64,000 bases of DNA from NCBI GenBank assembly GCA_043812455.1, contig JBDRMB010000029.1, positions 8,303-72,302 on the forward strand, given 5' to 3'. Source of the DNA: an archaeon (lineage in GTDB: Archaea > Nanobdellota > Nanobdellia > Woesearchaeales > GW2011-AR9). The position numbers and the translations under genes were made by a program. The notes beneath the pieces were generated by a model. That model ran no database searches. It worked only from the letters and a program-made list of their open reading frames with translations, and was not told the origin of the DNA. Positions 24,140-58,737 of this stretch are shown here, piece after piece; position 1 is the stretch's first letter; every line of letters starts with the position of its first letter.

Positions 24140-26328
24140 ATCAGTTCTGGCACAGGCAATTCCTGGCTGTAATCATCCATGTTCGATAGGAACTCATAAT
24201 AGTAATCTTCATTGCTCGGACTAACTTCAAGAACATGGAACTGAATCATACTTCCTTCCTGCAAACTGGTCCAAGGTAATAACCACTGACCGCGGTAACC
24301 GCCGATCAAATCTTCTTCATTAACAAGATAAATCAAAACATCATATTCAAAATCTGCACCAGACAATAACTGCACTTTAGTTTCTTCTAAGATTTCAGTA
24401 TCTAACGTTGGTGAATAAACTAGCTCTACTTTATGTAATTCAGCACCACCTTGCAAGAACTCTCCTAGTTCTAATACATCAGAACTGGCACCGCCAGTTT
24501 CAAGATCCGTACCAGTTTCATTTCCAATAGTCTCATTTGTAGCTGTTTCAACTGGGGCTACTGGTGCACTTCCCGGGAAATATTTTATAGTTACTAAAGC
24601 AGTTTCATCATCATCTAATGCCTTACCATCTGATATGTCAAAACATAACACATCTTCACCTTGCATTTCAATTTCTTCATCAGTACAATCTCTTTCTTCA
24701 ACTTGATGCTTAACAACTTCAACATCCGCCATACTAAATTCAACTAGTGGTCTCATCTCAAGTTCCACAACTAAGTCGTCACTTGAAACTACATATTGCC
24801 AAGTTTCAAGATAACTTTCTTTATTACCGCGCATGATTGCTGCTGCACAGTATGGGAATTGATCACTAAGTCCAGCAACATCGCCTCGCTCTTCAAAGTC
24901 ATATTCAGTTTGACCCATTTCACACTTATAACGGATACAAGTATAACTTATGTTAACACCATCTAAAGGTTCTCTATAATACACACCTGTTGCTTCATTA
25001 GAAACTAAAGAATAAGTTTCTATACTCATCGGAACATAACTTGGACTGTTATAACAATAATCTTCATCAGTCACACTTGGAATATTTTGCGATTCTCTAG
25101 CAATTGCCGGACCTTTGTAAGGATAATTTCCAATCAGGTTTACAGTAAATGCCATCTGAAAAACTCCACCACTTTGTTCATCACGCAATTCAATAATTAC
25201 TGGGTAAATTACATCGTAAGTAAACTTCCAATTCTGGATACATAAGAAAGATAACATTGTTCCTCCGCCTAGACGATCACTGGTCATATAATTTCCTTCT
25301 CGAGGAGTTACCTGGAAAGTAAACGGATAAGTATTTTCAAATTTAAAAACTCCAGAAATGTCTTCATCATAATGTTCAATATCCCACACATAATGGTTTT
25401 GATAATAAGGTAAGTCATCAGGGAAATCTTGATAATCTGTCCCGTCAATCTTAAGGTTACGCAAATTTATCCGTAACATATCTTTTAAAGTATTTTCAGC
25501 AGTATCTACTCTCCACTTCTTTTCGTTACAGCTTATTTCCATTCCAGCAACTGGTACATCTTCATGCTCTAACGCGATCAAATCCTGAGTAATATCTTCT
25601 AATTTTAAAGTATCCATTTCAGAGTCAAGAACTGCGTCAGCCATTTCATATAAACTTTTGAACCTGATCCGAGATTCAGCAGTATGATCAATCAGTTCTG
25701 CTACCAATTCCCCTTCTTTATCTTTAACCAATAAGTTCCAATGAACATTAAACTGAGTTTTCCCACTAAGAAATTCAGTATCTGCTTCAATGTCGCTAAT
25801 TTCTACAATGTCATAAGTTTCCTGGAAAACTTCTGGATCGAACAAACAAGAAGGAACATTTTCTTCTATATAATCATCAACTTGAATTTTAATCTCATCT
25901 AAACTTGGCTGATCAATCTCAGCACCATTTGCCCATAACGGAACATACATAAACGGTGAAAGTTGGATACTCCAAGTGATATCATCAGTATAACGTTCTG
26001 GAACTTTAACATAACCGCCTTGTTTTCCAGCCAAAAGTAACGCTTCTTCCCCAACATTAGTTATACAATCAGTAACATAAGTTTCGACTGCCCCTTTCTG
26101 GATTAAAATTAAATCCTGACCAGGAAGTTTGATAAGTTCTTGCTGTAAAAGAATGATTAAAGCTACTGCAATTAACAAAATTATTCCTAAAATTATGTAA
26201 ACTGTAACCTGAGCTTTTCTATTTGATCTGTTGAGTATGTTGAGCGCATTTTTTCTTGCGTTGAGCCTTGAAAATAGGTTAGAACTAGCACTACTTTTAC
26301 CTCTATCACCACTCTTACTAAACATCAC
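24136..26328 (-). CDS. type II membrane-anchored protein with large extracellular domain (730 aa); first gene of the surface operon
   Basis: A basic cytoplasmic N-terminus is followed by a TM (VYIILGIILLIAVALIILL) and an acidic roughly 650-aa extracellular region. ATGA overlaps the giant gene. Confidence 0.5.
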   Translation of the reverse strand: MMFSKSGDRGKSSASSNLFSRLNARKNALNILNRSNRKAQVTVYIILGIILLIAVALIILLQQELIKLPGQDLILIQKGAVETYVTDCITNVGEEALLLAGKQGGYVKVPERYTDDITWSIQLSPFMYVPLWANGAEIDQPSLDEIKIQVDDYIEENVPSCLFDPEVFQETYDIVEISDIEADTEFLSGKTQFNVHWNLLVKDKEGELVAELIDHTAESRIRFKSLYEMADAVLDSEMDTLKLEDITQDLIALEHEDVPVAGMEISCNEKKWRVDTAENTLKDMLRINLRNLKIDGTDYQDFPDDLPYYQNHYVWDIEHYDEDISGVFKFENTYPFTFQVTPREGNYMTSDRLGGGTMLSFLCIQNWKFTYDVIYPVIIELRDEQSGGVFQMAFTVNLIGNYPYKGPAIARESQNIPSVTDEDYCYNSPSYVPMSIETYSLVSNEATGVYYREPLDGVNISYTCIRYKCEMGQTEYDFEERGDVAGLSDQFPYCAAAIMRGNKESYLETWQYVVSSDDLVVELEMRPLVEFSMADVEVVKHQVEERDCTDEEIEMQGEDVLCFDISDGKALDDDETALVTIKYFPGSAPVAPVETATNETIGNETGTDLETGGASSDVLELGEFLQGGAELHKVELVYSPTLDTEILEETKVQLLSGADFEYDVLIYLVNEEDLIGGYRGQWLLPWTSLQEGSMIQFHVLEVSPSNEDYYYEFLSNMDDYSQELPVPELI

Positions 26329-27946: not shown

Positions 27947-29089
27947 TCACCCCACTACAAGGTTAATTAATTTGTTTTGTTTTCTGTCTAATGAATATCC
28001 AATGTATTTATAAAATTTTGTGAGGCTACCTTTCCTAGCAATATGTAAATCAAAGCAGAGACTGTATCTTCCAGCATGTGTTCTACTCAAGCGACCTGCA
28101 AAAATTCTGTTTTTAATATCAAGTTCCTTAAGAATTTTGGATTCTCCTTGCAAAAGTTTAGGAGCTTTATTTAACTCACTCAGTAACTTTTTATCTTCAA
28201 TTAGTCCTGATGCTTTCTTGATTGTAATAACCTTGGTTATATGTCCTGTAGGGAATTTGTTAATCAACATAAACTTATCAAGCAGTTCTAATTCTTTTAT
28301 TTGTTTTTTAGTTAAATTATTTAGATGCCTATAACGCGAAAGTGTGATATACCCATAATTTCCTTTCTTATCTTTGTACACTGAAGATTCATCATCAAAC
28401 GCTGCCTTCAAGTAATTCGCTTTCATTTCTTTAGTTCCTTTCTTTATCAACCAAGGTACTTCACCATCAACTGTCGCTTTTCTTCCAGAAATTGCTCCAA
28501 CTCTTAATAAGGACTCACCAATTATAGATGAGCCAATTCTAAGCAGAATACAATTTCTTACAAATTCTTTTTGTATGTGAACCTCGCCAAATAATTTATT
28601 TATTATTTTTATAAAATTCTCTGCAGATTGCTCCTCACCAGCAGCATATTTTGTTCTAAATTTGTTTCTTGCTTTCTTATCTTTGAAAATGCAACCATCA
28701 GAAACAATTAATCCTAAAAGATAAGCACCATCTTCATTGTTGAGGTTTATTGGAAATTTTGGATTTTTTATAGAAATAACTTTCCCTTTTTTAGTCATCA
28801 AGATTTTATCATTCATATAATTATAATTAATCCCTAAGTAATCCAACAATTTCTTAAGTTTCATAACAGAAACCATATTAACACCTTTATTGTTTATCAG
28901 ATTATAAAATGTGGGACTACTCAAGTTCAATTCATTACAAAGCAGAGACAGGTTACCAGCTTTTTTAATTCCTTTTAGGATTAATTTTTCTAGTAGATCA
29001 TCTTTTAGTTCAAATAGAAATGTATCTTTAAGTTGATACCAATGAGTTTCCCAATGAGGGATTGCCAAATCTTCATTAATTGAATTCAT
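27947..29089 (-). CDS. LAGLIDADG-family (double-motif) homing-endonuclease-like protein with N-terminal HTH-like region
   Basis: The two motifs are [14 protein letters not shown] and [14 protein letters not shown] (LAGLIDADG-like), about 100 aa apart. N-terminal [24 protein letters not shown] resembles an HTH. The start is trimmed to ATG 29089, preceded by SD GGAGGT. The stop lies 2 nt before the cysS ATG. Confidence 0.6.
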
Positions 29090-29098
29090 TTTTATTAC

Positions 29099-29128
29099 CT
29101 CCAAGTTTCCACCTACTTAAACTTGGAG
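29099..29128 (-). promoter_or_regulatory. 10-bp perfect inverted repeat (CTCCAAGTTT / AAACTTGGAG) whose 3' arm contains the SD of the LAGLIDADG gene
   Basis: The arms are 29099-29108 and 29119-29128 with a 10-nt loop. The SD GGAGGT (minus strand) lies at 29097-29102. The predicted mRNA hairpin would occlude the ribosome-binding site. Confidence 0.3.
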
Positions 29129-30491: not shown

Positions 30492-31127
30492 TTACAATTC
30501 TAACACTTCAGCTTTATTTAAACTTTCTTCTTGTAAAGTCTTCAGGTCTAGCTTTTTTAATTCCAGTTCAATATTCTCTTGCTTAGATCTAGTTGCAGGG
30601 TGTTTCGGTCCGAGCAAACAACAGATTTCTGGTCCTTTCGAAATTTCATAAGTTTCAATTTCTTTGGCAATTTCAATGATTTCTTGTTTGTCGTAAGTCA
30701 AAAGTGGCCGGAGAATTTCTAAGCTTAGTTGGCTGCTGATAACTTCAAGATTACTCAATGTCTGGCTGCTTACTTGCGCAAGATTTTCTCCTGTGATCAA
30801 AAATTTAGCGCCTTCTTTTTCAGCGACCATCTCTGCTGCTTGGAACATGGCAATCTTTTGCAAGATGAAATAATTCTTATGCTGACACTTATTTACTAAT
30901 TCTTTAAGCACATTAGCAAAAGGCACTAAATAAACTTTTTTAACGCCAAGCTTCTTAACCAGCTCTTTTACTTTGTCTAACTCTTTCTCATCGGTCAACG
31001 GCACTTGATGGAAATGCACTGCAATGATGTCTAATTTTTCTTTCATTAGGTACCCTGCAACTACTGAATCAAATCCCCCTGACAAGAGTAATATGGCTTT
31101 TTTCATCTTTTTATTGGAATCCTCCAT
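30492..31127 (-). CDS. PP-loop ATP pyrophosphatase, ThiI-like (tRNA 4-thiouridine synthase catalytic domain only, no THUMP)
   Basis: KKAILLLSGGFDSVVAGYLM is the SGGxDS PP-loop. IAVHFHQVPL resembles the ThiI HF motif. At 211 aa it is much shorter than full-length ThiI. Confidence 0.55.
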   Translation of the reverse strand: MEDSNKKMKKAILLLSGGFDSVVAGYLMKEKLDIIAVHFHQVPLTDEKELDKVKELVKKLGVKKVYLVPFANVLKELVNKCQHKNYFILQKIAMFQAAEMVAEKEGAKFLITGENLAQVSSQTLSNLEVISSQLSLEILRPLLTYDKQEIIEIAKEIETYEISKGPEICCLLGPKHPATRSKQENIELELKKLDLKTLQEESLNKAEVLEL

Positions 31128-32524
31128 TTTTGAACTTGACTATTAATTTTATATTTATAGACTTTGCCCGATTTATAACGTTCCAAAACATCACAGCTTA
31201 ACAAAAATTCTAAATATTTGTATAGAGTCGAATATCCAACTTCGGTTTCTCTGGAGATTTTAGATTTGAGCTCATAAAGAGTCTTGTCTTTACAATTAAA
31301 CAACATTAAAAAATCACCGAGCTTTACACTCATGCTTGAGTGTGAGAAACGATTTAAATAATCAGTTGCTACTACTAGAGATGCCGGTTTGTAAGAATAG
31401 TTTCTAGTTAATAATTCATATTTTGTAGTCCCAGGAAAAAATAAAAAAGATAAATCCTTATTACTTTTTTTCCTTACTTTTATTGTGTAACATCCTTTTT
31501 TGTCAACTTTTTTAGAACAATTGGAAATAATTTTCTTTTTATTAAAATAATTAGCTAAATCTACTGACATTAATTTACTTTTAGTTTGTAAATTTATGTT
31601 TCCATCTAATTCCACTGAACCATCAAATTGCAAAAAACCCCTGACAAATGCATCATTAAAAATTAATGAAGAAGTTTTAATAATTGAAGGGATACTTACA
31701 GAATTAGATTTTGCTCCGTGATTAAAGCCTAAGAATTTTATTAAATGGCGAATAATTATCTTATTTCCTATTGTAAGGTGCCAAGCTCCTACTTCTTTAA
31801 ACTTTTGAGGAGAATAAACAATTTCAAAGCAATTATTAAATTGTTTTGCTAATTTCTCCAAAGGTAATTTTGAACCTTCAACTATCCTTAAGAAATAACT
31901 TACTTTAATTCTCTCAAAGCACCCATAATCTTTTACTATTGGAAGTAATTTAGCAATTGAATCTTCATTAGAACAAAATGTAAAATAACAGTGTTTTATA
32001 GAAGAATCATAACAAACATTTACTTTCCTACCAAATTTCTTATTTACATCATCAATTAAACTAAGTTCTGGTTTAGTCTTAAAAATGATATTAATTCTCA
32101 ATGGAAGCGTGCCATCAGCAGCATGAGCTCCCGCAATTTCACATAAGGGGATAGTTAATTGCTTCAAAGCCTTAACTTTTTGTGAAGTCGAGCCTGCAGT
32201 CTTGAGTAACTTTATATTAGAATTAATCTCTTTTACAAGTTTACTTTTGCTTTTGGAAGAAATTTTCAGCAATTCTAAAAATAGAGGTATGGAAAACCAG
32301 CTTTTACGAAAACTTAGATATTTTTCAATTGTATCATACGAACAATTCAACTGTTCTGCGAGATAATTAATTAAATCTTTTTTATATTGATATTTTTGAA
32401 GAATATCTCTTAAAATAAAATTGATAGTTCTCCTAGTCTCATTGTTTAAATCAAAACAAATCCATGAAAAAGGTCTTACATCTATCCTTTCATCGTGAAG
32501 TTCTAATAAATTGAATTTTTTCAT
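31103..32524 (-). CDS. LAGLIDADG-family (double-motif) protein with N-terminal HTH-like region, second copy
   Basis: The two motifs are CEIAGAHAADGTL and FVRGFLQFDGSVELDG. The N-terminal DLINYLAEQLNCSYDTIEKYL is HTH-like. 473 aa. Confidence 0.5.
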   Translation of the reverse strand: MKKFNLLELHDERIDVRPFSWICFDLNNETRRTINFILRDILQKYQYKKDLINYLAEQLNCSYDTIEKYLSFRKSWFSIPLFLELLKISSKSKSKLVKEINSNIKLLKTAGSTSQKVKALKQLTIPLCEIAGAHAADGTLPLRINIIFKTKPELSLIDDVNKKFGRKVNVCYDSSIKHCYFTFCSNEDSIAKLLPIVKDYGCFERIKVSYFLRIVEGSKLPLEKLAKQFNNCFEIVYSPQKFKEVGAWHLTIGNKIIIRHLIKFLGFNHGAKSNSVSIPSIIKTSSLIFNDAFVRGFLQFDGSVELDGNINLQTKSKLMSVDLANYFNKKKIISNCSKKVDKKGCYTIKVRKKSNKDLSFLFFPGTTKYELLTRNYSYKPASLVVATDYLNRFSHSSMSVKLGDFLMLFNCKDKTLYELKSKISRETEVGYSTLYKYLEFLLSCDVLERYKSGKVYKYKINSQVQKWRIPIKR

Positions 32525-32802: not shown

Positions 32803-34797
32803 TTGATTAATACCTTCACAAAAATGAGAAAAATTATCCTTTTGTTAATAATTATTAGCTTAATACTAGTTAGCACAGCAGTTGCAGAAAATCTTTACTT
32901 TTATGATAGTTTAGACATCAGCTTAGATGTTAACGGGCAACTATCTCTTTACGAAGCAGGAAATAATCCAGAGGTCAGTGAACTTACCACTACATTATTA
33001 CTCTATCCCGAAGAAGATTACCGACAAGAACTGTTAAGTTTCCAATCTAGTGGTGAAGTTGAAGAAAACAAAGTTGTTTTCTATTGGAAAGACCCTACCC
33101 TTGGCGAGAAGGATTATTCTTTCCAATCATTAGTAAGAACTACCTATCACCGCAACCAGATCAGCGAAAAAATATTTTTTCCAACAGAATTTACTGAACA
33201 AGAAATTGAAGAAGAACAGCTTTATTTATATTTAGAAGATTCTGAAATTATTGATTGGAATGAACCAAGTATTATTGCTCAAGCTAATGAACTTACTGCA
33301 GATAGTGACGATTATTTTGAAGTAGTTTTTTTACTGGCCTCTTGGGTAGAAGAAAACATTGAATATGATTTGAACTCATTGACTGCTAAATCCAGCCAAA
33401 AATCAAGTTGGGTATTAGAAAACAAAGAAGGGGTATGTGACGAAATGACTTCTTTATTCATCTCCATGTGTCGATCACAAGGAATTCCCGCTAGGTTTGT
33501 AACTGGAGTATCTTATACTAACTCACCATTATTTGCTGAACCTTGGCAAGCCCACGGTTGGGCAGAAGTTTATTTTCCTAATCATGGTTGGGTCAGTTTT
33601 GATCCTACGTTTGGGGAATATGGTTATATTGATTCCACTCATGTTAAACTTAAAGATGATGCTGATCCTAGTGAAGCTTCTACACTTTACGAATGGACTG
33701 CCCATAACGTTAATATTGTCAGCAAAGAACTTGACTTTGATGTTGATGTTGTTGGTTATGGAGATCAGATAGATAAAGAATTTTCATTAGAAATGTCAAG
33801 TTTGGGAGAAGAATTGGCCTTTGGCAGTTATAATTTGATTACAGCAATAATCAAAAATGAAAAGGAATATTATTCAGCAAGCACATTGACATTAACCGTG
33901 CCAGAAGAAATTCAAATTATTAATAATAAAAAACAAACAGTATTATTAGAACCTAAAGAAGTACAAGAATTATACTGGATTATCAAGATTCCTCAAAACC
34001 TAAATGAAGGATATCGATATGAATTTCCTTATACAATCTCCACTGAAAAGAATTTAAGTATTGAAGATTCTTTCTTCTCACAGAAAAGTGCAGTATCTTA
34101 CACTAAATCTGAAGTAGAAGATCTTATTCCAGAAGATCTTGACGAGAATAGTTACTCCAGGGTGCTTGTTTTATCTTGTGAATACCAAGAAGAAGTTCAA
34201 GTTAACCAAGATAATATAATTTCTTGTTCGTTAAAGAATTCAGGAGATACCAAACTCGAAAATCTTAATTTTTGTATTGCAAATGAATGTTTAAATATTG
34301 ATCAATTGCCAATTAGTAAAGAATATAGTTATGAAGTTGAATTAAGTTCATTAGAAGCTGGCTGGAAAACTGTCTTTGTCTCAGCAAAAAATGATCTGGT
34401 TCAAAAAGGCCAATACTTAACCTACCAAGTCTTAGATCAAGCTTCATTAGAATTTTCTTACTCAGTTTCAGAGAATATTCATTATGGCGAAGAATTCTTA
34501 ATTACAATCTCTTTGATTCCGGATTCATTTACAATACCACAAAACCTTACTATGACAATAACTTTGCCAGGGAAGATTAACACTTGGGAAATTAGTGAAC
34601 TTACCCAGCAACAAGACATTATTTTAGAGATTAATAGTCTGGGACTTGGCTCTGAAAACTATTTACCATTAGAACTTGCTTGGCAGGATGAACAAGGTAA
34701 TGAATTTAGTTATTATGAAGAAATTTTAGTTGAGATTGAAAGCAATACTTTTTGGGACAAAGTAGTCATGTTTTTTAACACACTAACCAGTTTTTAG
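32803..34797 (+). CDS. secreted transglutaminase-like cysteine protease superfamily protein
   Basis: The signal peptide is MRKIILLLIIISLILVSTAVA. The Cys-His-Asp triad context is EGVCDEMTSLFISMCRSQGIPARFV ... HGWAEVYFPNHGWVSFDPT. A long C-terminal beta-rich region follows. Confidence 0.65.
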   Translation: MINTFTKMRKIILLLIIISLILVSTAVAENLYFYDSLDISLDVNGQLSLYEAGNNPEVSELTTTLLLYPEEDYRQELLSFQSSGEVEENKVVFYWKDPTLGEKDYSFQSLVRTTYHRNQISEKIFFPTEFTEQEIEEEQLYLYLEDSEIIDWNEPSIIAQANELTADSDDYFEVVFLLASWVEENIEYDLNSLTAKSSQKSSWVLENKEGVCDEMTSLFISMCRSQGIPARFVTGVSYTNSPLFAEPWQAHGWAEVYFPNHGWVSFDPTFGEYGYIDSTHVKLKDDADPSEASTLYEWTAHNVNIVSKELDFDVDVVGYGDQIDKEFSLEMSSLGEELAFGSYNLITAIIKNEKEYYSASTLTLTVPEEIQIINNKKQTVLLEPKEVQELYWIIKIPQNLNEGYRYEFPYTISTEKNLSIEDSFFSQKSAVSYTKSEVEDLIPEDLDENSYSRVLVLSCEYQEEVQVNQDNIISCSLKNSGDTKLENLNFCIANECLNIDQLPISKEYSYEVELSSLEAGWKTVFVSAKNDLVQKGQYLTYQVLDQASLEFSYSVSENIHYGEEFLITISLIPDSFTIPQNLTMTITLPGKINTWEISELTQQQDIILEINSLGLGSENYLPLELAWQDEQGNEFSYYEEILVEIESNTFWDKVVMFFNTLTSF

Positions 34798-36722: not shown

Positions 36723-37634
36723 TTAACTTGCACTTTCTTTGATTCTTAACTTCTCAAAAATCAAATCTTGGTAAGTGTATGAGAAAGTTAAAGTTATAGA
36801 ATCGCTGTAAAGATCACTCTCAGCCAAAGGTTCATTTAATCGACAGATAACTTCTGCTTTTCCATCAATCATCCTAGCTTCATTCAACTGACCACCAGAT
36901 TTACATTCCCAGTCTTCTGGACTTTCAATTTCGTAAGCCACTTGACTGAACCGATTATCAAAATCTTCACTTTGAATAGTGGAATCACCAGTGCCAACAT
37001 TACTTACTTGTATTTTTAACAACACAATTCCTTTCCCAGCAGTATCTTCCTCAACTGAAGTTATGGTAATTGGTGCTCCTGAAACTGAATAAGACTTGTA
37101 TTCTTGAACTTCGCAAACCTTTTCATCAGTTAGATCTCCCTTAAAACAAACATCATTAATGATTAATGTTGTTTCATAATCATACTTATAATTAATGTTC
37201 CAAGTAACATCGTTATATCCAATAATTTCGCTGTTATACTTAGCATAAGCATTTGGAGTAAAAGAGATTATTTCCTCACCACCAGTAGGATTGAATTCAG
37301 AAATTTTCTCAATTTCTTCAGTGTTTGACTTTTCCCAATCGGGAATATTACTAAAATCTTCATGTGCTGGGCCTATTAAGGTTAAAACCACATCACCAGG
37401 TTCAACAGTATTTTCACCCATGTTTTTTATTACCAATTCTATTGGAAAATCTTCAGTATCAAAAATAGTATAAACACCATCTTCCATAATACTAAACGGT
37501 TCGAAACTTAATACAATCCCGTCTGTTCCACCAATGAAAGCTCCACTTGTAGTATCAACTTGTTGACCCTGACAAGCTGTTAAAAGAATTAAACTGACCA
37601 AAGCCAGTACCAATAATAATTTTTTGAAAACCAT
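36723..37634 (-). CDS. secreted lipoprotein, paralogue 1 of a three-copy family in the surface cluster (lipobox LLTAC)
   Basis: The N-terminus is MVFKKLLLVLALVSLILLTACQG. It shares a segmental pattern with 38286 and 39336 (..ELxIKNxGxxxxxxxxxxLxLxGxxxxxF.., later GG.G.P....VEE). Confidence 0.5.
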   Translation of the reverse strand: MVFKKLLLVLALVSLILLTACQGQQVDTTSGAFIGGTDGIVLSFEPFSIMEDGVYTIFDTEDFPIELVIKNMGENTVEPGDVVLTLIGPAHEDFSNIPDWEKSNTEEIEKISEFNPTGGEEIISFTPNAYAKYNSEIIGYNDVTWNINYKYDYETTLIINDVCFKGDLTDEKVCEVQEYKSYSVSGAPITITSVEEDTAGKGIVLLKIQVSNVGTGDSTIQSEDFDNRFSQVAYEIESPEDWECKSGGQLNEARMIDGKAEVICRLNEPLAESDLYSDSITLTFSYTYQDLIFEKLRIKESAS

Positions 37635-37755
37635 CCTAACAACCTCTTTATGTTTGTCTTTAATCGTGTTTGATCAATAATTTAGTATTTAAACGTATTA
37701 AACTAAGAAAAAAAGAGTTTAGCTATAAAAAATCTTCGCTTTTCTAAGCTAAAAA

Positions 37756-38271
37756 TTGAAGAGGAATGCCGATATAGGACTCAATGAAAAAACATTTAAA
37801 TATCGCGGACTTTTCAGTTTTATCATGAAAACAGATTTAGTAATTGCAGGTTATATAATTCATCAAAACAAAGTTTTACTAATTCACCATAGAAAATTAA
37901 ATTTGTGGCTTCCGGTTGGTGGCCACATTGATGAAAACGAAACACCTAATCAAGCATTACTTCGCGAAATCAAAGAAGAAATTGGCATTGATGTAGAAAT
38001 ACTTAATAAAAGCAATATCCCCGCGGAGGGAAATATTAAATGCAATCTCGCTACTCCTTTTTATGTTAATGTTCATTCTGTTGGAGACCATGACCATTGT
38101 TGTTTATTCTATGTTTGTAAAGCGATTAATCCAGAACAATTGAAAATAAACAATGAACTAAAAAATTTTGAATGGTTCGCTAAAGATGACCTAAACAAAG
38201 ATCATGTCCCTGCTGATGTGAAAAATCAAAGCTTAGCAGCCCTAAAATTATATAATAATCTTCTAGATTAA
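37756..38271 (+). CDS. NUDIX hydrolase
   Basis: The Nudix box is GGHIDENETPNQALLREIKEEIGIDV (GX5EX7REUXEEXGU). Confidence 0.75.
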   Translation: MKRNADIGLNEKTFKYRGLFSFIMKTDLVIAGYIIHQNKVLLIHHRKLNLWLPVGGHIDENETPNQALLREIKEEIGIDVEILNKSNIPAEGNIKCNLATPFYVNVHSVGDHDHCCLFYVCKAINPEQLKINNELKNFEWFAKDDLNKDHVPADVKNQSLAALKLYNNLLD

Positions 38272-38285
38272 AACCTAGCGAGAAA

Positions 38286-39227
38286 TTAAGGTGTTTCAAT
38301 GATTTGGATGCTTTTTTGAAGATTTTCTATATAATTGTAATCTAAAGTTATCTGTAATGGGGTTTCGAACGCAGTAGCACCATTGATCCTGAAACTACAA
38401 ATGATCTTACCAGCATCGTTACTCATCCTTACCAACCAGTCAGAAGGAGTACATTTGATTAGACTTCCACCAGTCATTTCTACATTGTACAAGATCTTAT
38501 CCAAATCATCATAATCTAAACTTGCTTCACCACAATTAACAATGTCTGCATAAGGACTTAATACTCTGCCATTACCTGAATTTCGGACACTAATTTCAAA
38601 AATTGCAGTATCTCCAGTCATCTCTACTCCAACATAACTTACACTAACTGGCGCACCTTGACCGCCACCCATCATCACATTTTGTGGAGTACAAGCTTTC
38701 TGTTCAGAAGTTATCTGATAAAATAATGGATCTACACACACGCTTGGACTGGTCCTAGTTTGATAATTGTAACACATAACTAAATTTAAATTTGGTGAGT
38801 ATTCATAAGTTCCAGTCGGTAAATCAATGTTAGAAGATTCCCACTGTACTTGATTATAACCACCATCTAAGTTATAAACACTTTTACCATCAATATCTCC
38901 ACAAGATTGCACATAATTAATGCCTCTTATAATATTAGCATCAAACCCAGTTATCTGTAAATAACAATCGTACGCACTTAAATCATAATTACCTTTATTC
39001 TCTAGTTCAACAATCGCTACAAAATCGTTAATGTCATATATCTTACTTGGAGGATAACCTGTAACAAAACTTGCCTTTAAACCCTCTGTTCCAGACTGAA
39101 CTTGTGCAAGAGCTACAGAAGTTTCCATTGGTTCTTCACCAGCAGGAACCCTGTTACAAGATGCTAATAGAAATACTAAGAGAACTAAAGATACAACTAA
39201 CAACCCTTTTTTGATTCTAAATGCCAT
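38286..39227 (-). CDS. secreted lipoprotein, paralogue 2 (lipobox LLASC)
   Basis: The N-terminus is MAFRIKKGLLVVSLVLLVFLLASCNR. It is a paralogue of 39336 (YDINDFVAIVELENKGNYDLSAYDCYLQITGFDANII versus EVYQAEDIEFQIELKNEGAYDLSNGHLQILGFDSKYV). Confidence 0.5.
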   Translation of the reverse strand: MAFRIKKGLLVVSLVLLVFLLASCNRVPAGEEPMETSVALAQVQSGTEGLKASFVTGYPPSKIYDINDFVAIVELENKGNYDLSAYDCYLQITGFDANIIRGINYVQSCGDIDGKSVYNLDGGYNQVQWESSNIDLPTGTYEYSPNLNLVMCYNYQTRTSPSVCVDPLFYQITSEQKACTPQNVMMGGGQGAPVSVSYVGVEMTGDTAIFEISVRNSGNGRVLSPYADIVNCGEASLDYDDLDKILYNVEMTGGSLIKCTPSDWLVRMSNDAGKIICSFRINGATAFETPLQITLDYNYIENLQKSIQIIETP

Positions 39228-39335
39228 ACACCTATCAAAGCGATAATAAACTTTTTAGTTATTTAAAGCTTTTGTTTAAGTAGCTTTACTAATTATGCTT
39301 AAATCGTACCCACACTTTACTAAAAATCTAATTTC

Positions 39336-40235
39336 TTAACTCCTAACCCTTAAAGTATAATCTTTAGAGACTTTATAAGTATAAAAATATTCTAAGAATA
39401 ACGTTGTTGGATATGAAGAAGTAATATCATGATATTTTGTACAGACTAGTTCTGCATATTGTTCATCTTCAAACTCAAAACTTTTATCTCCGGTCTTTCT
39501 AAATTCACAATCAATAGTATCCTGACCTAGATTTGATTTAATTAAAGTAACTTCTTCAGCCTGACTTCTTGAACTACCCATATTTTCTATCAAAATTCTA
39601 AATTCAACTTTAGTACCTGTACTGATTTCTTCAATTTCAGTTACTGCTAATGGGCCGCCTTGCCCGCCTAACCTCATTGGATTTGGATAATCTCTACTAC
39701 CTACAGTACAGCCACCATAAACTTCATAATCCGGTTCAGAAGGATCAATACAGACATCAACTGCTAGCTCATTACTATAGTCATAAGTTGCAGTGATGAG
39801 ATAAGGAAAATCTTGCCGTTCAGCACCAACTTTAATGTCCCATACACTAGCTTCAAAATTTAAATTTTCTTTATCTCCAACCGGATTTGTAACACTTCTG
39901 CCTTCCATCACACCACCTTTAGTTGGAAAACTTTTACCTTCCCAATCATATATGTCAACATATTTAGAATCAAAACCTAAAATTTGTAAATGACCGTTAG
40001 ATAAATCGTATGCTCCTTCATTTTTTAGTTCAATTTGAAATTCAATATCTTCAGCTTGGTAAACTTCATCAGGAGGATAATTTTTCACTTTTTCAATTAC
40101 CAAACCAGTATAACCCTGTTTATATGTTCCTTCAAAGGCTGCACCAGTATCTTCAGAACTACAAGAACTTAAAAGTAAGCTTAACATTAAAATCGCACAG
40201 ATTACAATTGTAAATTTAATTTTTTTAATTTTCAT
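39336..40235 (-). CDS. secreted lipoprotein, paralogue 3 (lipobox LLSSC)
   Basis: The N-terminus is MKIKKIKFTIVICAILMLSLLLSSCSS. See the paralogy evidence above. Confidence 0.5.
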   Translation of the reverse strand: MKIKKIKFTIVICAILMLSLLLSSCSSEDTGAAFEGTYKQGYTGLVIEKVKNYPPDEVYQAEDIEFQIELKNEGAYDLSNGHLQILGFDSKYVDIYDWEGKSFPTKGGVMEGRSVTNPVGDKENLNFEASVWDIKVGAERQDFPYLITATYDYSNELAVDVCIDPSEPDYEVYGGCTVGSRDYPNPMRLGGQGGPLAVTEIEEISTGTKVEFRILIENMGSSRSQAEEVTLIKSNLGQDTIDCEFRKTGDKSFEFEDEQYAELVCTKYHDITSSYPTTLFLEYFYTYKVSKDYTLRVRS

Positions 40236-40266
40236 TTCTTATTTTATTTTTTTTAATTTCACTTTT

Positions 40267-42204
40267 TCAAACTATTGTAACAGTAATTGTATTTTGTGTA
40301 CTGATTTGATAATCATAATTCAAAATTGCATCAAAAGATTGTACTACAAAATCCTGGGCAGCAATCAAATCTTCCATCTCTGCACCCCATTCCAAGAAGC
40401 AAAGAGATAAAGGGATATCAGAACCTTTGCTAGTTTTATCAGGAACAATTACTGTACCACCTTGCAAACAACTAACATCTAAATCTCCTGGATTATACAT
40501 GTAAGGTTCCAAGTCAATAAAATAATCATTAACATTTATTATTTTTCCAGTACCAGCGTTTTCAATTGATGATACTAAAAGTAAATTATCATCTTTTTCT
40601 ATAATTGGATTAGTTTCTGGTTGACCAAACCCAAAATTTATCCGCGCAAATTCATCTGGTGCACTTGATAAAGCATTAGTACCTGAAAAGTATGTACTTC
40701 TTGCTTCTGCTAAAAGTTCATTATTTTCGTCATAATCTTCAACAAACATTCTAGTTAATGTTGAAGTAGTTTCCAGGCCACTAAACTCTGCTTGATAAGT
40801 TAATGTATAACTCCCATTCAGAAGTTGACCACTTGGTGGACTACAGATTGCCGCTAAAGTATCTGACTTCTCATTAAAAGTAATACTTGAACTTGGAGAA
40901 ATCTCACCTAAGAAACTTTCAGAATTGTCTGAACTACCAGTCTTAGTAAAATTACATATTAATGTTATTCCTAATTCTTGTTCTCTTGGGTTTTCAATTT
41001 CTAAGTTTATTGGATATTGTAAAGCTTGAGTTGTGCCAACACTGACTACTCGTTTTGTTGGAAAACTGTTTCTGTCAACCTTAAAACTAGCTTCGGTCTT
41101 TTCCAAGATTGATCTGTCAACAGTACCTTGTGCAGTTTGTTGTTCATCTTCTTCAATTCTAGTTTTTTCATCTTCTAAACAACGATTATAATCTGAACTT
41201 CCTTCAGTGAAACCATAAACATCGCTGCAAGTATACTTCACTTGAGAATTAAGCTGCCTTTCGGCCACGCAATCATCCACATCAAACCCACCAATGTCAG
41301 CAACGTTTTGTATTGCCTGAAGTGTACATATAAAATTTGACCAGCCCGGATTTTCAGTTTTCGGTGCTTGTTCTCTTAACTGTTCTTGTGCACCTTCAAG
41401 ATCCTCAAGACCTGGAACTACAGAATTTTCATAAGCCACAGTAGGAATCACTGGAATGAGTATTACAACAACCAAATAAAGGATTCCTATAACTCGTGCA
41501 ACATTAATAACGGTATTGCTGCCTTTACCTTCTTCAGTAGGCAACATTAACAATCCAAAAAATGCCCACCATGGCATAAAAAGTACCATGTATTCAAAAC
41601 CATCTTTAACTGCAAAACCTAAAGTTTCAACAAGAAAAGGAATAAGTCCGGCGTCTAGATAAAAAAATAGTACTGGCAACAAACCCCACAATTCTGGACG
41701 AGTTACCCTACCCTTAGTGATGACCATAGAACCAAAAAGGATTAGTATTGAAATTCCTCCAAAGTACATTAAAAAATTTGGGTCATAATTTCCACCAAAA
41801 ACAAAGTACCATAATATCCATATGGCCATTGGTATAAATACTGCAAATTTATCTACTTGAACCTTATTAGAAACAGCATAGCCTGCAAAGATAAATAGTA
41901 AAAAAGAAAGTATTAAAGTTAAGGTTGAATAACCGACAACAAGTTTAACGAAAAAATAAACACCACCGATGATCATCATCACAAAACTAATATTCTTCAA
42001 AGCACTAACAGCATTTGCACCCGCTGCAGCACCTGCACCCCAAATAACTCCCGGACCCGCACTTGCTGCAGCACCCGCACCGCCAGCAAGACCAGTAGCA
42101 CCTTTCAATGCTCCAAGAGCGCCAGCTGCTTTACTTCCAGCACCAGCTGCTGCACTACCTATTCCTTTTAACACTCCTCCTGCTGCTGCACTCTCGCCGG
42201 CCAT
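40267..42204 (-). CDS. polytopic membrane protein: Gly/Ala-rich low-complexity N-terminal region (about 70 aa), about 6-7 TM helices, then about 330-aa extracellular beta-rich domain
   Basis: The N-terminus is AAGGVLKGIGSAAAGAGSKAAGALGALKGATGLAGGAGAAASAGPGVIWGAGAAAG, encoded by a GC-rich island. There are multiple hydrophobic helices (IGGVYFFVKLVVGY, TLILSFLLFIFAGYAV, MAIWILWYFVFGG, ...). No known family recognised. Confidence 0.5.
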   Translation of the reverse strand: MAGESAAAGGVLKGIGSAAAGAGSKAAGALGALKGATGLAGGAGAAASAGPGVIWGAGAAAGANAVSALKNISFVMMIIGGVYFFVKLVVGYSTLTLILSFLLFIFAGYAVSNKVQVDKFAVFIPMAIWILWYFVFGGNYDPNFLMYFGGISILILFGSMVITKGRVTRPELWGLLPVLFFYLDAGLIPFLVETLGFAVKDGFEYMVLFMPWWAFFGLLMLPTEEGKGSNTVINVARVIGILYLVVVILIPVIPTVAYENSVVPGLEDLEGAQEQLREQAPKTENPGWSNFICTLQAIQNVADIGGFDVDDCVAERQLNSQVKYTCSDVYGFTEGSSDYNRCLEDEKTRIEEDEQQTAQGTVDRSILEKTEASFKVDRNSFPTKRVVSVGTTQALQYPINLEIENPREQELGITLICNFTKTGSSDNSESFLGEISPSSSITFNEKSDTLAAICSPPSGQLLNGSYTLTYQAEFSGLETTSTLTRMFVEDYDENNELLAEARSTYFSGTNALSSAPDEFARINFGFGQPETNPIIEKDDNLLLVSSIENAGTGKIINVNDYFIDLEPYMYNPGDLDVSCLQGGTVIVPDKTSKGSDIPLSLCFLEWGAEMEDLIAAQDFVVQSFDAILNYDYQISTQNTITVTIV

Positions 42205-42300
42205 CCATTTACCTCTTTACATTACTATCTAGTTCAATCGTCTAGCTTTTAATTTATATAATAAGAAATAAAAACTTAAGCATATAAAAAGGTTGCTACT

Positions 42301-43491
42301 CTAATCTTCCTTCAATTCAACAGTAAGTTCGCGAACTTCGATAGTCTTACTTGGTACCACTTGTAATGCATTGTTACCTTCAACAACATCATCACTAATA
42401 TCAATAGTATAAGACAATTCCCTAGTATCAAAATGACTTTTATCCCCGTTTACATTGATATAACCAGTCTTTTCAGAAGTGTCATCAACAAAATCTAAAG
42501 TTACTTTAACAAAACTATCTTCATCTTCAACAGATTCCAGTTCTTCTTTGTCAAGTCCAAAATAATAAGTAGTATACTCAATTTCTTCCAAATTAGAGAT
42601 AATTTTCATATGATAAAGTTCATACTCTTCATATTCAGTGTAAAAAGTAATATCATTCTCACCGCGATAAACTAGTTCTGGTGAAAACTCGATTGGAACC
42701 ATACTCAAACCACAATCTGGAACTCCAGAATAAATATTATAATCGTTAATTGTGATGATTAATCTTCCAACATCATCATAATCACATTCTGGCTGGAACC
42801 TCAATTCCAATGCTTCTAAGTTATCATATTCAGTTTCTGATATTAAGAAAGTATTGCTTGCAGATTGGAAATTTAAATCAGTTACTCTTCCTACAACTTT
42901 TACTCTTTCAATACTGGCAGAATTAGTTTTCCAGAATGCAAGTCCTGGTGAAGAAACGCTAATACTAACATTGTTAACATTTTCTAATGAATAATCAGGA
43001 ATAGTGATTATTGGATTTTCGTTCTCATCCAACGGTTTATTGTAAAGTTCTTCCCCATTAACAGTTATTATCAAATTCCCTTGTCCTGAACTTATGGAAA
43101 AACTCATTACAACACTATCAGTATTATCTAAATCATCAACTTCAAAAGTAAATTCAGCAGCTTCTTCAGAAAAAATACCATTTTTTGCATAAAGTGTACT
43201 TTTCTCTAACAGAATTTTACTTTCAGTTTTTGTATAAATGCGCATTGAAGCCAAGCTGTGTTCAACTTCATCCAAAGACAAATATTCAATTTTTCCAGGA
43301 TATTCACTTAAGAGAACTTGTTCTTCAACAGTTGAACTGGTATCTTCAACACTCCCCCCATCAGAATCGCCCAAAATGTTTGCTCTTTCTTCAGGAGATA
43401 CTACAATAATGAACATGATAATCAAACCAGCCACAATAGCTAAAAATATTGCTGCTGCTGCAGCTTGCCCCTTTTTACTTGACTTAAACAT
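42301..43491 (-). CDS. surface protein with class III (type IV pilin-like) signal peptide candidate; start trimmed to Met at 43491
   Basis: MFKSSKKGQAAAAAIFLAIVAGLIIMFIIVV consists of a basic stretch, KG|Q, and about a 22-aa hydrophobic helix, as in archaeal prepilin-peptidase substrates. The ORF-track extension upstream reads through GC-rich element copy c and was dropped. Confidence 0.45.
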   Translation of the reverse strand: MFKSSKKGQAAAAAIFLAIVAGLIIMFIIVVSPEERANILGDSDGGSVEDTSSTVEEQVLLSEYPGKIEYLSLDEVEHSLASMRIYTKTESKILLEKSTLYAKNGIFSEEAAEFTFEVDDLDNTDSVVMSFSISSGQGNLIITVNGEELYNKPLDENENPIITIPDYSLENVNNVSISVSSPGLAFWKTNSASIERVKVVGRVTDLNFQSASNTFLISETEYDNLEALELRFQPECDYDDVGRLIITINDYNIYSGVPDCGLSMVPIEFSPELVYRGENDITFYTEYEEYELYHMKIISNLEEIEYTTYYFGLDKEELESVEDEDSFVKVTLDFVDDTSEKTGYINVNGDKSHFDTRELSYTIDISDDVVEGNNALQVVPSKTIEVRELTVELKED

Positions 43492-43602
43492 CTTCAAGGT
43501 AAAATAAGTACTCTCTGATATATAAATATTGCTTTTCTTGAGGCACCGTAGAATTGCTTTTTGCATCCAAAGGTCAAAACTTTTTCTATAAACATAATCA
43601 GG

Positions 43603-50911: not shown

Positions 50912-52351
50912 TTAGCGATTATAACATTGTTTAAACTTGAAACGCAAGTCTATAGAATCACCGGCTTCAATAGAAAAAGTTTTTTCCTGAGCAGGCACAT
51001 CTAAAGAACTGGTTTTATCTTTCGCAAGACAAGTAAATGGACTTAATTCAAGTTTATATTCACCTTCAGACAGATTTAATCTTCCAGATCCATTATTAAT
51101 ATTGAATCTGTCTATTCTTCTATAATCATTACCTATTTTTTCATATAATGATGCTTTTACTGAAGGAATATTCCCATAAGCACTCTGAACATAAATTATT
51201 GCCGCACCGCCAAGATCAACAATAAAATCTTCCTCTACAGAAGTGCTTAAGCTAGGAAACTCTGAATTAGTTACCTCGCCTTTAAACTGACAATTTGTTC
51301 TTTCAGAATTAACTCCAATACCTCGACTAATTTGCCCAAAATAAGAACTGTTTGATCTGCTAGTTGATACATTCCTCCATTGAGTATCGGGTTCACAGAG
51401 ATAAGAAACATTGACGTTAGGTGTACCTCTTTCCTGGTAAGTATCAACACTAAAAGAAAAAGACAAATCGGGAAACAAAAATCTTTCCGTAAATCTTGCA
51501 CCACCATGACCTTCTATCTGATAATCTGTTAAAAAACTTGTTTCTCCTCTTGAACATTTGCTAGTTGTACCTTTACAAATTTTGAGCCCTTTAATTTTCA
51601 AATCATTGTAAACAAAAGATCCGCTTTCTTCCACTAGCTCTCCTTTAGTATCTTCAAGTTCAATTCTTAATGTATACTTACCTAAGTCCAAACCGCCAAG
51701 ATCAATCTCATCACTAAATAAAAACTTTCCAGAAGAACCTTTTTGCTCAGAAAGTTCTTTTTCTAAATTAATTTCCCCTGAACGAACCACTTCCCCATCA
51801 CTGCTTAACAATTGATAATTTCCATTAATCTTAATCTCTCTTCTTTCATAATTTTGGTATCCTAAGACCGCAGAAAAAGAAACCGTTTTTTGAGCTCCTC
51901 TCAAAAATAAATCTGATAGTTCTAAACAAGAATCATTAATAACCTCACTACAAAACATTATATTTTTAATATTTATACTTTCATTATCTAAAGCTTGCCT
52001 GCTAACAATTTCCTGACCTTGCTTAATCCATCCTAATTGCCCATTGTAATTAGCTAACTGCCAACTGCTTCTCACGTCACCAGAACAAAGTTCAAACCAA
52101 GTATTTTGAGGAATTTTTGATAATTCAGTACTTTCATCCCTGTCTTCATAAACTAATATCCCTTCTTCTTCAAGTACTAAATGCTCCAAAGCATTACTAC
52201 AATCTAACGGTCTAACTTCTTCCAATTGCTTTTCAGCATCTTCAATAATTTCTATCTGTCTGATATCAGCTTCTTTATTACAGCCAGAAGATAAAGCTAA
52301 CACTCCTAAAAAAGAAACTATAGTTGCTAATCTTCGGAAAACCATAATCAT
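50912..52351 (-). CDS. secreted lipoprotein, paralogue of 12525..13556 (lipobox ALSSGC)
   Basis: The N-terminus is MIMVFRRLATIVSFLGVLALSSGCNKEADIRQIEIIEDAEKQLEEVRPLDCSN. The family beta-sandwich-like module is IMFCSEVINDSC...NYQLLSSDGEVV...GKYTLRIELEDTKGE. Confidence 0.55.
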   Translation of the reverse strand: MIMVFRRLATIVSFLGVLALSSGCNKEADIRQIEIIEDAEKQLEEVRPLDCSNALEHLVLEEEGILVYEDRDESTELSKIPQNTWFELCSGDVRSSWQLANYNGQLGWIKQGQEIVSRQALDNESINIKNIMFCSEVINDSCLELSDLFLRGAQKTVSFSAVLGYQNYERREIKINGNYQLLSSDGEVVRSGEINLEKELSEQKGSSGKFLFSDEIDLGGLDLGKYTLRIELEDTKGELVEESGSFVYNDLKIKGLKICKGTTSKCSRGETSFLTDYQIEGHGGARFTERFLFPDLSFSFSVDTYQERGTPNVNVSYLCEPDTQWRNVSTSRSNSSYFGQISRGIGVNSERTNCQFKGEVTNSEFPSLSTSVEEDFIVDLGGAAIIYVQSAYGNIPSVKASLYEKIGNDYRRIDRFNINNGSGRLNLSEGEYKLELSPFTCLAKDKTSSLDVPAQEKTFSIEAGDSIDLRFKFKQCYNR

Positions 52352-58505: not shown

Positions 58506-58737
58506 CTATGGCCCCACCCAGAATCCCTGTGCTATAAGAAGGAACTGCAATTACGCCCATTACAAGAACATCCAATGTCCCCCTACCAACAGTACTTTCA
58601 ATATTCATAGCATCATTAATTGCGGTACCTATTTCATATCCGCCCCAAAATGTAGCAATAGAAGCTCCAACAAATCCTGCTCCAACACATAGCATCTTAA
58701 GGTTACTAGGTTCATCATTATCAGTATATCTTTTCAT
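58468..58737 (-). CDS. small glycine-zipper membrane protein (start trimmed to MKRYTDND)
   Basis: GAGFVGASIATFWGGYEIG and GVIAVPSYSTGILGGAI are GxxxG-type glycine-zipper helices. Confidence 0.35.
   Translation of the reverse strand: MKRYTDNDEPSNLKMLCVGAGFVGASIATFWGGYEIGTAINDAMNIESTVGRGTLDVLVMGVIAVPSYSTGILGGAIVDALYNRFTRNR

Follow-up and report, generated by a model that had tools for sequence, protein, structure and literature searches.

Gene content and conservation of the locus

We analyzed a 64-kb stretch of archaeal DNA (referred to below as the window; positions 8,303 to 72,302 of contig JBDRMB010000029.1, GenBank assembly GCA_043812455.1; GC content ∼33%), in which five minus-strand genes encode three lipoproteins of roughly 300 aa (LP1, LP2 and LP3), a polytopic membrane protein (TM645) and a protein with a pilin-like N-terminus (PIL396). 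These genes form a real, conserved and undescribed module that may serve envelope building or attachment to partner cells. The five open reading frames (ORFs) were confirmed in the ORF listing and, together with one gene of the opposite strand, are arranged as follows (TM, transmembrane):

36723..37634, minus strand: LP1, 303 aa, lipobox lipoprotein (LLTAC, Cys21) with two beta-sandwich domains
37756-38271, plus strand: NUDIX gene between LP1 and LP2 (Pfam match, 1e-15)
38286..39227, minus strand: LP2, 313 aa, lipobox lipoprotein (LLASC, Cys24), paralogue of LP3
39336..40235, minus strand: LP3, 299 aa, lipobox lipoprotein (LLSSC, Cys25)
40267..42204, minus strand: TM645, 645 aa, 7-TM protein with predicted N-in/C-out topology and a large outer domain
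42301..43491, minus strand: PIL396, 396 aa, with class-III-like signal, linker, N-terminal segment and three tandem jelly-roll-like domains

An initial annotation of this DNA had described five consecutive, co-oriented genes. The shared orientation stands, but the genes are not consecutive, as the plus-strand NUDIX gene sets LP1, which has its own upstream region, apart from LP2. LP2 and LP1 adjoin without this gene in close relatives (L001, L006, L007 and L031), and it therefore looks like a recent insertion or rearrangement. Each of the five genes is preceded by an AT-rich upstream region and a Shine-Dalgarno-like site, and all five proteins carry export or anchor signals and conserved Cys pairs. 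The module is flanked by housekeeping archaeal genes (RFC small subunit, Pelota, TrmB, PheRS alpha and beta, and CysRS); neither tRNA genes nor other Rfam features were found in the window.

Related loci were gathered by means of TM645 homologues, lipoprotein homologues, a scan of the GTDB species representatives, which gave 20 loci, and a scan of metagenomes, which gave 35, and their ORFs were classed with profile hidden Markov models of the three families. Patterns for the metagenome scan were taken from a 5-sequence alignment of the PIL396 (PIL) family, a 95-sequence alignment being too diverse. The relatives were metagenome-assembled genomes (MAGs) of Woesearchaeota, Nanoarchaeota or Nanoarchaeia. 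As TM645 is also identical to a GenBank protein of a 'Nanoarchaeota archaeon' MAG, the window is assigned to a Woesearchaeota-type archaeon of the DPANN group. The 7-TM gene lay downstream of the pilin-like gene on the same strand in all 38 informative loci, and it was followed within 200 bp by a lipoprotein gene, often overlapping its stop codon, in 36 out of 36 loci. The lipoprotein gene next to the 7-TM gene was always of the LP3 type and, when more were present, the order was always LP3, LP2, LP1; three such genes followed in 8 loci, two in 1 locus and a single one in 20. This order was kept across TM645 identities down to ∼20%, and its recurrence in every related locus examined is far beyond chance. 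The LP2-LP1 block adjoined the core in about one third of the loci; in other genomes, the LP2- and LP1-type genes were paired at a different site, such as next to RFC or 7 kb upstream. Apart from the module families, only housekeeping genes recurred within ±10 kb (23 clustered loci). The unit therefore consists of a core of three genes (pilin-like, 7-TM and LP3) and an LP2-LP1 pair that can be separated from it, and no cytoplasmic component is linked to it. Thus, the synteny among relatives on which the initially proposed system depended was found, whereas the block of five turned out not to be a fixed set.

An extra gene of ∼1.6 kb, a UvrD-type helicase in one annotated case, stood between the pilin-like and 7-TM genes in L017, L055-L057 and a locus of JGI sample 3300072015, with the module order unchanged. 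It should be noted that the GTDB contigs L011-L013, L015, L017, L019-L021, L023 and L026 are labelled 'uncultured Methanosarcinales archaeon'. This label looks wrong, as their gene content and synteny match Woesearchaeota/Nanoarchaeota MAGs.

Scans of all five proteins against Pfam, NCBIfam, PHROGs and PADLOC gave nothing significant (matches to phrog_902 cover signal peptides only), and PDB sequence profile searches with the lipoprotein, TM645 and PIL families gave nothing below E=0.4. As the initial annotation had stated in denying a canonical pilus operon, no matching ATPase or TadC component is present: type IV pilus (T4P) ATPase, TadC and A24 prepilin peptidase domains were all missing from the Pfam-scanned ORFs of the window, which took in every non-overlapped ORF of at least 110 aa and left out overlapped ORFs and three tandem ORFs of ∼100 aa (57892-58773). 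Likewise, no ATPase, platform protein or peptidase of type IV filament (TFF) systems recurred in 58 related loci. A viral or mobile origin was rejected in view of the stable housekeeping synteny and the lack of PHROG matches.

Domain architecture of the three protein families

TM645 consists of the following segments (pLDDT, predicted local distance difference test, of the AlphaFold2 (AF2) model):

41998..42204, minus strand: residues 1-69, Gly/Ala tail, 64% Gly+Ala, disordered (pLDDT <35), probably cytoplasmic
41458..41991, minus strand: residues 72-249, membrane domain of ∼7 helices, weakly conserved
41131..41409, minus strand: residues 266-358, helical 'stalk', extracellular, with conserved Cys 293, 312, 326 and 342
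40273..41097, minus strand: residues 370-644, two beta-sandwich domains, collinear with the mature lipoproteins

The N-in/C-out topology fits the distribution of positive charges, and the AF2 model as a whole reached a pLDDT of only 64. The alignment comprised 25 sequences, most of which were supplied by synteny, word-based searches giving only 7; a second word-indexed search with a wider alignment found no additional relatives, probably since Gly/Ala words swamped the candidates. The 6-7 TM helices reported initially were borne out (∼7 hydrophobic helices), and two other descriptions needed revision. The first 70 residues are indeed of low complexity, but not pure Gly/Ala, and they are Gly/Ala-rich only in the sub-lineage of the window, the tails of relatives being Lys/Glu-rich, Pro-rich or nearly absent, so that this feature does not define the protein. 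The supposed 330-aa extracellular beta domain is a large C-terminal outer domain, as claimed, but it spans ∼385 aa and is made up of a Cys-rich helical segment of ∼95 aa and two beta-sandwiches. The DNA encoding the tail has a local GC content of 0.61, against ∼0.33, and contains no meaningful tandem repeat; the Pro/Ala-rich antisense ORF at 41969-42232 (plus strand) is an artefact.

The conserved portion of TM645 is extracellular, namely the four-Cys helical segment followed by the two beta-sandwiches. About two helices of the membrane part are missing in four lineages, W213 of a PWW motif is its sole near-invariant residue, and no conserved residues of catalytic type were observed in the tail or the membrane part. 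Given the poor conservation of both its Gly/Ala head and its membrane part, TM645 has the look of an anchor and not of a transporter. No known transporter or enzyme family was matched in Pfam or NCBIfam, and PDB sequences were hit at E>1 only; Foldseek matches in the PDB were confined to the beta-sandwiches and were generic Ig-like, with TM-scores below 0.3. A transporter match, which the initial annotation had regarded as fatal to its proposal, was thus absent from Pfam, NCBIfam, PDB sequences and Foldseek-PDB. Two further candidates were rejected. An assignment to AglB/STT3 or another GT-C glycosyltransferase is contradicted by the lack of an STT3 match, too few helices, the lack of invariant acidic residues and a PWW motif instead of WWDYG; for archaeosortase, there was no match and the partner proteins have no PGF-CTERM.

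The outer part of TM645 is related to the lipoproteins. With hhalign, residues 370-644 aligned collinearly with the whole mature lipoprotein over 232 columns (E=5e-5), and the C-terminal domains alone gave E=2.7e-6 with a probability of 88%. The head of TM645 and the lipoproteins both end in a ...Y.Y... strand and share an IEN.G.G motif, and their secondary structures agree. On the strength of the profile-profile alignment and the common ending strand and motif, the lipoprotein ectodomain has a fourth paralogous copy in TM645, where it is borne by a membrane anchor. The protein had been called a novel multipass protein; it does lack a known family, but is not unrelated to its neighbors. One distant homologue is fused to a C-terminal Peptidase_M23 domain (4.6e-27), which places the TM645 ectodomain where cell-wall polymers would be accessible.

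The three lipoproteins are paralogues, as had been proposed, with pairwise E-values of 2e-21 (LP2/LP3), 1e-7 (LP1/LP3) and 3e-6 (LP1/LP2), and the lipoboxes LLTAC, LLASC and LLSSC were confirmed. However, the sequence blocks quoted as shared by all three (ELKNEGAYDLS/LQI.GFD and GGQG.P) are common to LP2 and LP3 only, LP1 being much more divergent from the other two. Across relatives, LP1 is the most conserved of the three orthogroups, and 83 of the 91 aligned homologues are of the LP1 type. A profile search found at least 179 lipoprotein relatives, all of ∼300 aa and all unannotated; those bearing names all belong to DPANN archaea. The lipobox Cys is invariant in the 91 homologues, as are four further Cys residues, which is expected of disulfide-bonded extracellular domains.

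By the published definition of a lipobox, a signal peptide ends in [LVI][ASTVI][GAS]C (PMC12462473). LP1-LP3 show this SPII-type signature (LTAC, LASC and SSC) and are predicted to be lipidated. Among 41 locus copies, 37 passed the lipobox pattern; two of the four failures have apparently wrong start calls, and the other two have a near-lipobox Cys (LTTAC and LLMGC). Lipobox proteins are prevalent in DPANN, in which the lipidation enzyme AliA (arCOG02177) has been reported, with gaps (PMC12462473); the archaeal lipidation enzymes AliA/AliB were not found in the window.

The AF2 model of LP3, built from 91 sequences, reached a pLDDT of 90 and consists of a signal helix, a short low-confidence linker of about 15-20 residues and two beta-sandwich domains. 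The Foldseek matches did not exceed a TM-score of 0.29 and were all to generic tandem Ig-like proteins (such as integrin legs, complement MG domains and the AglB C-terminal domain), and a comparison with viral structures gave a likewise generic picture. Matches of the first domain to CARDB, DUF11 and DUF4352 recur, all of them below threshold: LP3 scores 18.7 bits against CARDB, for which the Pfam gathering cut-off is 22.7, and 9 out of 91 members match CARDB at E<=0.1 (best E 1e-4). Two other lipobox lipoproteins of the window, at 50912-52351 (minus strand) and 12525-13556 (plus strand), are mutual paralogues (E=2e-18) with no Pfam match and, unlike LP1-LP3, show no depletion of N-glycosylation sequons.

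PIL396 and its upstream region comprise the following features:

43519..43526, minus strand: TATA-like box TTTATATA, ∼31 nt upstream of ATG 43491, read from sequence
43399..43491, minus strand: residues 1-31, basic leader MFKSSKKG and 22-residue hydrophobic helix, with a putative cleavage site before Gln9
43306..43395, minus strand: residues 33-62, conserved (L)PPxER..LL, then an acidic low-complexity linker
42592..43194, minus strand: d1 (residues 100-205) and d2 (residues 203-300), homologous repeats of ∼95 aa, nearly free of sequons
42304..42600, minus strand: d3 (residues 298-396), third repeat, sequon-neutral, tolerating an insert of ∼160 aa in some relatives

The longest ORF of this gene begins at TTG 43638; the lengths of homologues and the TATA-like box support the 396-aa start at ATG 43491, and the position of the box would fit a nearly leaderless transcript. 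An exhaustive phmmer search found 813 PIL cluster representatives (50% identity), 336 of them below 1e-30; the best 150 of the 813 have identities of 30-53%, and nearly all are 390-410 aa long.

The initial annotation had ascribed to PIL396 a class-III signal peptide, processed by prepilin peptidase. We applied a FlaFind-type pattern, attributed to Szabo et al. (2007), that asks for a short, positively charged leader closed by [KRDE][GA], an allowed +1 residue and a hydrophobic stretch of ∼20 residues; Gln at +1 is reportedly typical of EppA-type substrates. With MFKSSKKG/QAAAAA followed by 22 hydrophobic residues, the window protein passes this test. Across the family, the N-terminus has a basic leader of 4-12 residues, with [KR][GAS]Q in 115 of 144 representatives, followed by 3-9 small, polar or Gly residues, a conserved hydrophobic helix, (L)PPxER..LL and a variable acidic linker; owing to the polar/Gly spacer after Q, only 26 out of 146 members pass the strict pattern. 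The N-terminus of PIL396 would therefore fit recognition by a prepilin-type peptidase, with cleavage remaining putative. Calling the protein a pilin-like subunit, on the other hand, was an overstatement. A conserved Pro-Pro and a disordered linker come after the helix, the 58 loci show no linked assembly genes, and pilin or archaellin N-terminal models were matched neither by PIL396 itself (Pfam and NCBIfam, E<=1) nor by any of 95 PIL members (Pfam E<=0.1, NCBIfam E<=1). As a continuous alpha-1 helix would be interrupted by the Pro-Pro and the linker, PIL396 is probably a tethered surface protein and not a filament subunit.

The repeats of PIL396 are homologous according to hhalign (d1/d2, E=3e-13; d2/d3, E=1.3e-5) and carry a G.L.I.lNG...N.l.F signature. 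Sub-threshold matches to jelly-roll families were found among the 95 members, including CBM-like (7/95), Glyco_hydro_2_N (7/95) and rhamnoside_JR (10/95), as well as BetaGal_ABD2. Matches to SelW/Rdx in 15 of the 95 were judged a coincidence of a beta-strand motif, and kinship between PIL396 and the lipoproteins was not accepted, as hhalign gave an E-value of ∼0.3 only. Variants of ∼560 aa (P0159, P0170, P0175 and others) have an insert of ∼160 aa within d3, which abounds in Cys, Asp and Glu and contains an internal duplication (C..D.D..CP..C...D.DCCFE...WCD); a role in metal binding or docking is conceivable.

Sequon avoidance and the nature of the module

We also compared the counts of N-glycosylation sequons (N-X-S/T) with those in shuffles of the same sequences. 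The mature lipoprotein domains contain 1 sequon against 139 expected (91 sequences), and LP1-type homologues (83/91) contain 3 against 132 expected, the depletion being alike in all three orthogroups. Control motifs in the same proteins gave observed/expected ratios of 0.67 (S/T-X-N), 2.3 (N-X-A/G), 1.4 (Q-X-S/T) and 1.13 (D-X-S/T). The PIL linker is 2.8-fold enriched (94 sequons against 34-35 expected; mirror motif 0.98), and PIL residues 62-300 have a ratio of 0.14 (0.21 for residues 62-205 and 0.02 for residues 205-300); d2 alone has 2 sequons against 95 expected, and the homologous d3 is neutral (1.05-1.07). For TM645, the ratio is 0.19 in the stalk and 0.62, a mild depletion, in the beta head. 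No depletion was observed in the cytoplasmic proteins of the window (1.16).

These counts indicate that the clade N-glycosylates its surface proteins and that the machinery for N-glycosylation has access to the five proteins, which are hence truly extracytoplasmic. They also argue for strong selection that keeps the lipoproteins, PIL residues 62-300 and the TM645 stalk free of glycans, which tight protein packing would explain most simply. The PIL linker and d3 are presumably solvent-exposed; d3 would be the exposed distal domain, being both sequon-neutral and tolerant of the ∼160-aa insert.

We infer that the module proteins assemble into one tightly packed hetero-oligomer on the outer face of the cytoplasmic membrane, a reading to which we give about even chances. 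TM645 would be its membrane base, with a 7-helix anchor of weak conservation, a disordered tail in the cytoplasm that varies among relatives and, outside, a disulfide-stapled helical stalk bearing the head of two beta-sandwiches. LP3, which is probably translationally coupled to TM645, as well as LP2 and LP1 would be lipid-anchored paralogues packing against this head as a pseudo-symmetric set. The N-terminal helix would hold PIL396 in place, whether or not a prepilin-type peptidase trims off the 8 residues before Gln9, and the protein would extend through its glycosylated acidic linker, with residues 62-300 docking into the complex and d3 presented as an exposed ligand-binding, probably glycan-binding, distal tip. 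Since no NTPase or other energy source is linked, such a complex would be passive, that is, structural or adhesive, for envelope organisation or for binding to partner cells or cell walls, and would be neither a pilus nor a transporter. The high conservation of its components (30-53% identity among the top 150 of 813 PIL representatives) points to a constitutive machine rather than a fast-evolving adhesin or host-specificity factor.

The ligand might be a glycan or cell-wall polymer, of the cell itself or of its partner, a weak suggestion that is based on the jelly-roll/CBM-like repeats, the M23 fusion, SLT/M15 proteins and the Ddl, racemase and GH3 neighbors. The proteins concerned are two secreted products of the window with weak SLT and Peptidase_M15 matches (13558-14949 and 14952-16775, both on the minus strand), and Ddl, Glu racemase and GH3 genes that stand next to the module in one relative. 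Hints of murein-directed enzymes in relatives were found at L004 14852-18406 and L029 2979-5690 (GH3, Glu/Asp racemase, D-Ala-D-Ala ligase and the Peptidase_M23 fusion).

Several points weigh against the proposed hetero-oligomer. LP2 and LP1 are unlinked from the core in many genomes, and all five proteins may not always act together. Sequon avoidance could reflect constraints of folding or ligand binding instead of interfaces, and mild depletion is also seen in several further secreted products of the window, the ratios of which run from neutral down to ∼0.3, or to zero where few sequons were expected. The TM645 model is of moderate quality only, and the assignment of jelly-roll/CBM character to PIL396 would depend on sub-threshold matches in 7-10 of 95 members. 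A bolder version, which we consider doubtful, would be a DPANN-specific surface machine: a glycan-free hetero-oligomer of four paralogous ectodomains with a lectin-like arm, placed at the site of contact or transfer between symbiont and partner and unrelated to pili, S-layers and known secretion or uptake systems.

The best-surviving alternative, although unlikely, is that the module makes up the substrate and accessory part of a TFF system, with the genes for the ATPase, platform protein and prepilin peptidase lying elsewhere. PIL396 would then be cleaved before Gln9 and form a short pseudopilus, a bindosome-like structure, a large minor pilin or a tip adhesin, with TM645 and the lipoproteins as accessory parts. 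The class-III-type motif is conserved across the PIL family, with the Gln at +1 that EppA-type substrates are said to favor, and TFF loci do occur in DPANN genomes. Among the known 'minor pilins' are large all-beta proteins of 250-550 aa that pass FlaFind (arCOG02911; PMC4858521), and there are substrate-binding proteins with class-III signals that are not filament subunits (10.64898/2026.04.22.720090). However, this alternative has to accommodate the lack of the three assembly components from the scanned window ORFs and from the recurring genes of the 58 loci, the lack of a pilin N-terminal model match, the probable interruption of the alpha-1 helix that filament subunits use, and the 3-9 polar/Gly residues between Q and the hydrophobic core that leave so few members passing the strict pattern.

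It is rather unlikely that the module is the main cell-wall lattice (the S-layer or the anchors that fix it to the membrane). Its universal presence, its high conservation and its housekeeping neighbors would suit such a role, as would anchoring in the membrane by lipid and TM segments and the CARDB/DUF11-like Ig domains that are frequent in archaeal envelope proteins. Archaeal S-layer proteins, however, are normally heavily N-glycosylated, whereas sequons are almost excluded here; furthermore, the proteins are small and membrane-proximal, given the short linkers of the lipoproteins, and a better candidate for the canopy, also conserved, lies nearby (an Ig/fn3-rich protein of 1826 aa and its 730-aa partner; see below). 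A role as S-layer anchor or pedestal is conceivable and overlaps with the hetero-oligomer that we favor.

An uptake or transfer conduit, for example, for host lipids or glycans, built like the bacterial Lpt bridge, appears quite improbable. Its architecture would be analogous, with a polytopic protein whose ectodomain is homologous to its partners and a partner anchored by a single helix; DPANN archaea generally depend on hosts for lipids, and glycan-free surfaces would suit a continuous groove. Nevertheless, the module has no linked ABC protein or other NTPase, conservation of the membrane domain is poor and its helix number varies, and neither Lpt, Lol nor Mla was matched (only LptF at E=5), Foldseek hits being the generic Ig-like ones at TM-scores below 0.3. 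Finally, it is very improbable that these are unrelated surface-protein genes that are neighbors by chance: the separate upstream regions with Shine-Dalgarno-like sites and the unlinked LP2/LP1 genes would allow it, but order and orientation are kept in 38/38 and 36/36 loci at TM645 identities down to ∼20%, the TM645 stop overlaps the LP3 start in many loci, TM645 is homologous to the lipoproteins, and an unusual signature of sequon avoidance is held in common.

The name of an undescribed envelope or attachment system, given initially, remains the best label, and the cautious initial interpretation holds in large part. Literature searches for such a gene cluster in Woesearchaeota or DPANN found no description. 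DPANN archaea depend on physical contact with other cells, and our literature searches found neither a cultured member nor a surface structure of the Woesearchaeota-type lineages, which are very abundant. The module occurs almost universally across the clade; with its high conservation, its wholly extracytoplasmic location and its make-up of unannotated families alone, it is a prime candidate for a core structure of the envelope or of host contact. The sequon pattern provides a testable surface map, in which the lipoproteins, PIL residues 62-300 and the TM645 stalk are predicted to be buried and the PIL linker and d3 exposed. Three, arguably four, new protein families with defined domain boundaries can be offered for database curation.

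Several other genes of the window also deserve mention. A giant secreted protein of 1826 aa (18659-24139, minus strand) has Pur_ac_phosph_N/fn3-like, Glucodextran_B and Ig-like matches and adjoins an unannotated 730-aa protein (24136-26328, minus strand); the pair, which is conserved near the module in L006 and L007, is the stronger candidate when an outer canopy or adhesin is sought. A secreted transglutaminase-like protein of 664 aa (32803-34797, plus strand; Transglut_core 2e-28) has Ig-like C-terminal domains, and its gene is conserved beside RFC in several relatives. The window also encodes a full-length RelA/SpoT homologue of 628 aa (9696-11582, minus strand; HD_4, RelA_SpoT, TGS and ACT domains); long enzymes of this type are typical of bacteria, which suggests horizontal acquisition. 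Free-standing LAGLIDADG_3 homing-endonuclease-like ORFs (27947-29104 and 31103-32524, minus strand), one with a weak HTH_7 match, flank housekeeping genes. Two proteins of ∼300 aa (3236-4141, minus strand; 60097-60999, plus strand) have an N-terminal AbrB/MazE (SpoVT-type) domain and otherwise no match, and a Ser/Thr protein kinase of 695 aa is encoded at 1202-3289.

Comparison with known systems

Archaeal type IV pilins and related class-III proteins (Epd/Aap, arCOG02911) resemble PIL396 in the K-G leader, Gln at +1, the ∼20-residue helix and the all-beta exterior. They differ in that the module has no linked ATPase, platform protein or peptidase and in that PIL396 has no pilin N-terminal model match, its helix being followed by Pro-Pro and a disordered, glycosylation-prone linker. 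Large all-beta proteins with class-III signals occur in archaeal TFF loci (PMC4858521). The partners seen here, a 7-TM protein and lipoproteins, are not known from any described TFF locus. The Sulfolobus bindosome substrates GlcS and AraS likewise carry a large non-pilin ectodomain on a class-III-type helix and flexible linker. The ectodomain of PIL396, however, consists of three jelly-roll-like repeats instead of a solute-binding fold, and neither Bas (bindosome assembly) genes nor a cognate ABC transporter are adjacent to the module.

Several comparisons concern the lipoproteins and TM645. Like the CARDB/DUF11 Ig-like domains of archaeal surface proteins, the lipoproteins form a tandem Ig-like sandwich in the AF2 model, but their matches are below the Pfam gathering scores, the structural TM-score is below 0.3, and they have their own motifs and Cys pattern. 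The type V pili of Bacteroidia (FimA/Mfa) are also encoded by an operon of paralogous lipobox lipoproteins of ∼300 aa with two beta-sandwiches each; these archaea, however, have no outer membrane. No FimA/Mfa entry was present among the 50 best Foldseek-PDB matches of the LP3 model with pLDDT 90, and nothing points to proteolytic maturation or strand exchange of the type V kind in the lipoproteins. In the bacterial Lpt bridge (LptF/G, LptC and LptA), as in the module, the outer beta-domain of a polytopic protein is homologous to the domains of its partners, but the module has no ABC ATPase and no match to the beta-jellyroll fold, and its membrane domain is poorly conserved. Thus, the module fails the tests for type IV filament systems, type V pili and any transporter family.

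A closer functional parallel may be found in the archaellum stator proteins ArlF/ArlG, which are paralogous, membrane-tethered beta-sandwich proteins that form a hetero-complex at the membrane and envelope, as the proteins of the module would do. There is no significant similarity between the two (a chance-level ArlF match has E=0.08), the module has no archaellum context, and its anchors are a lipid and a 7-TM protein. The module would appear to work most like a membrane-tethered surface complex of the kind represented by the ArlF/ArlG pair.

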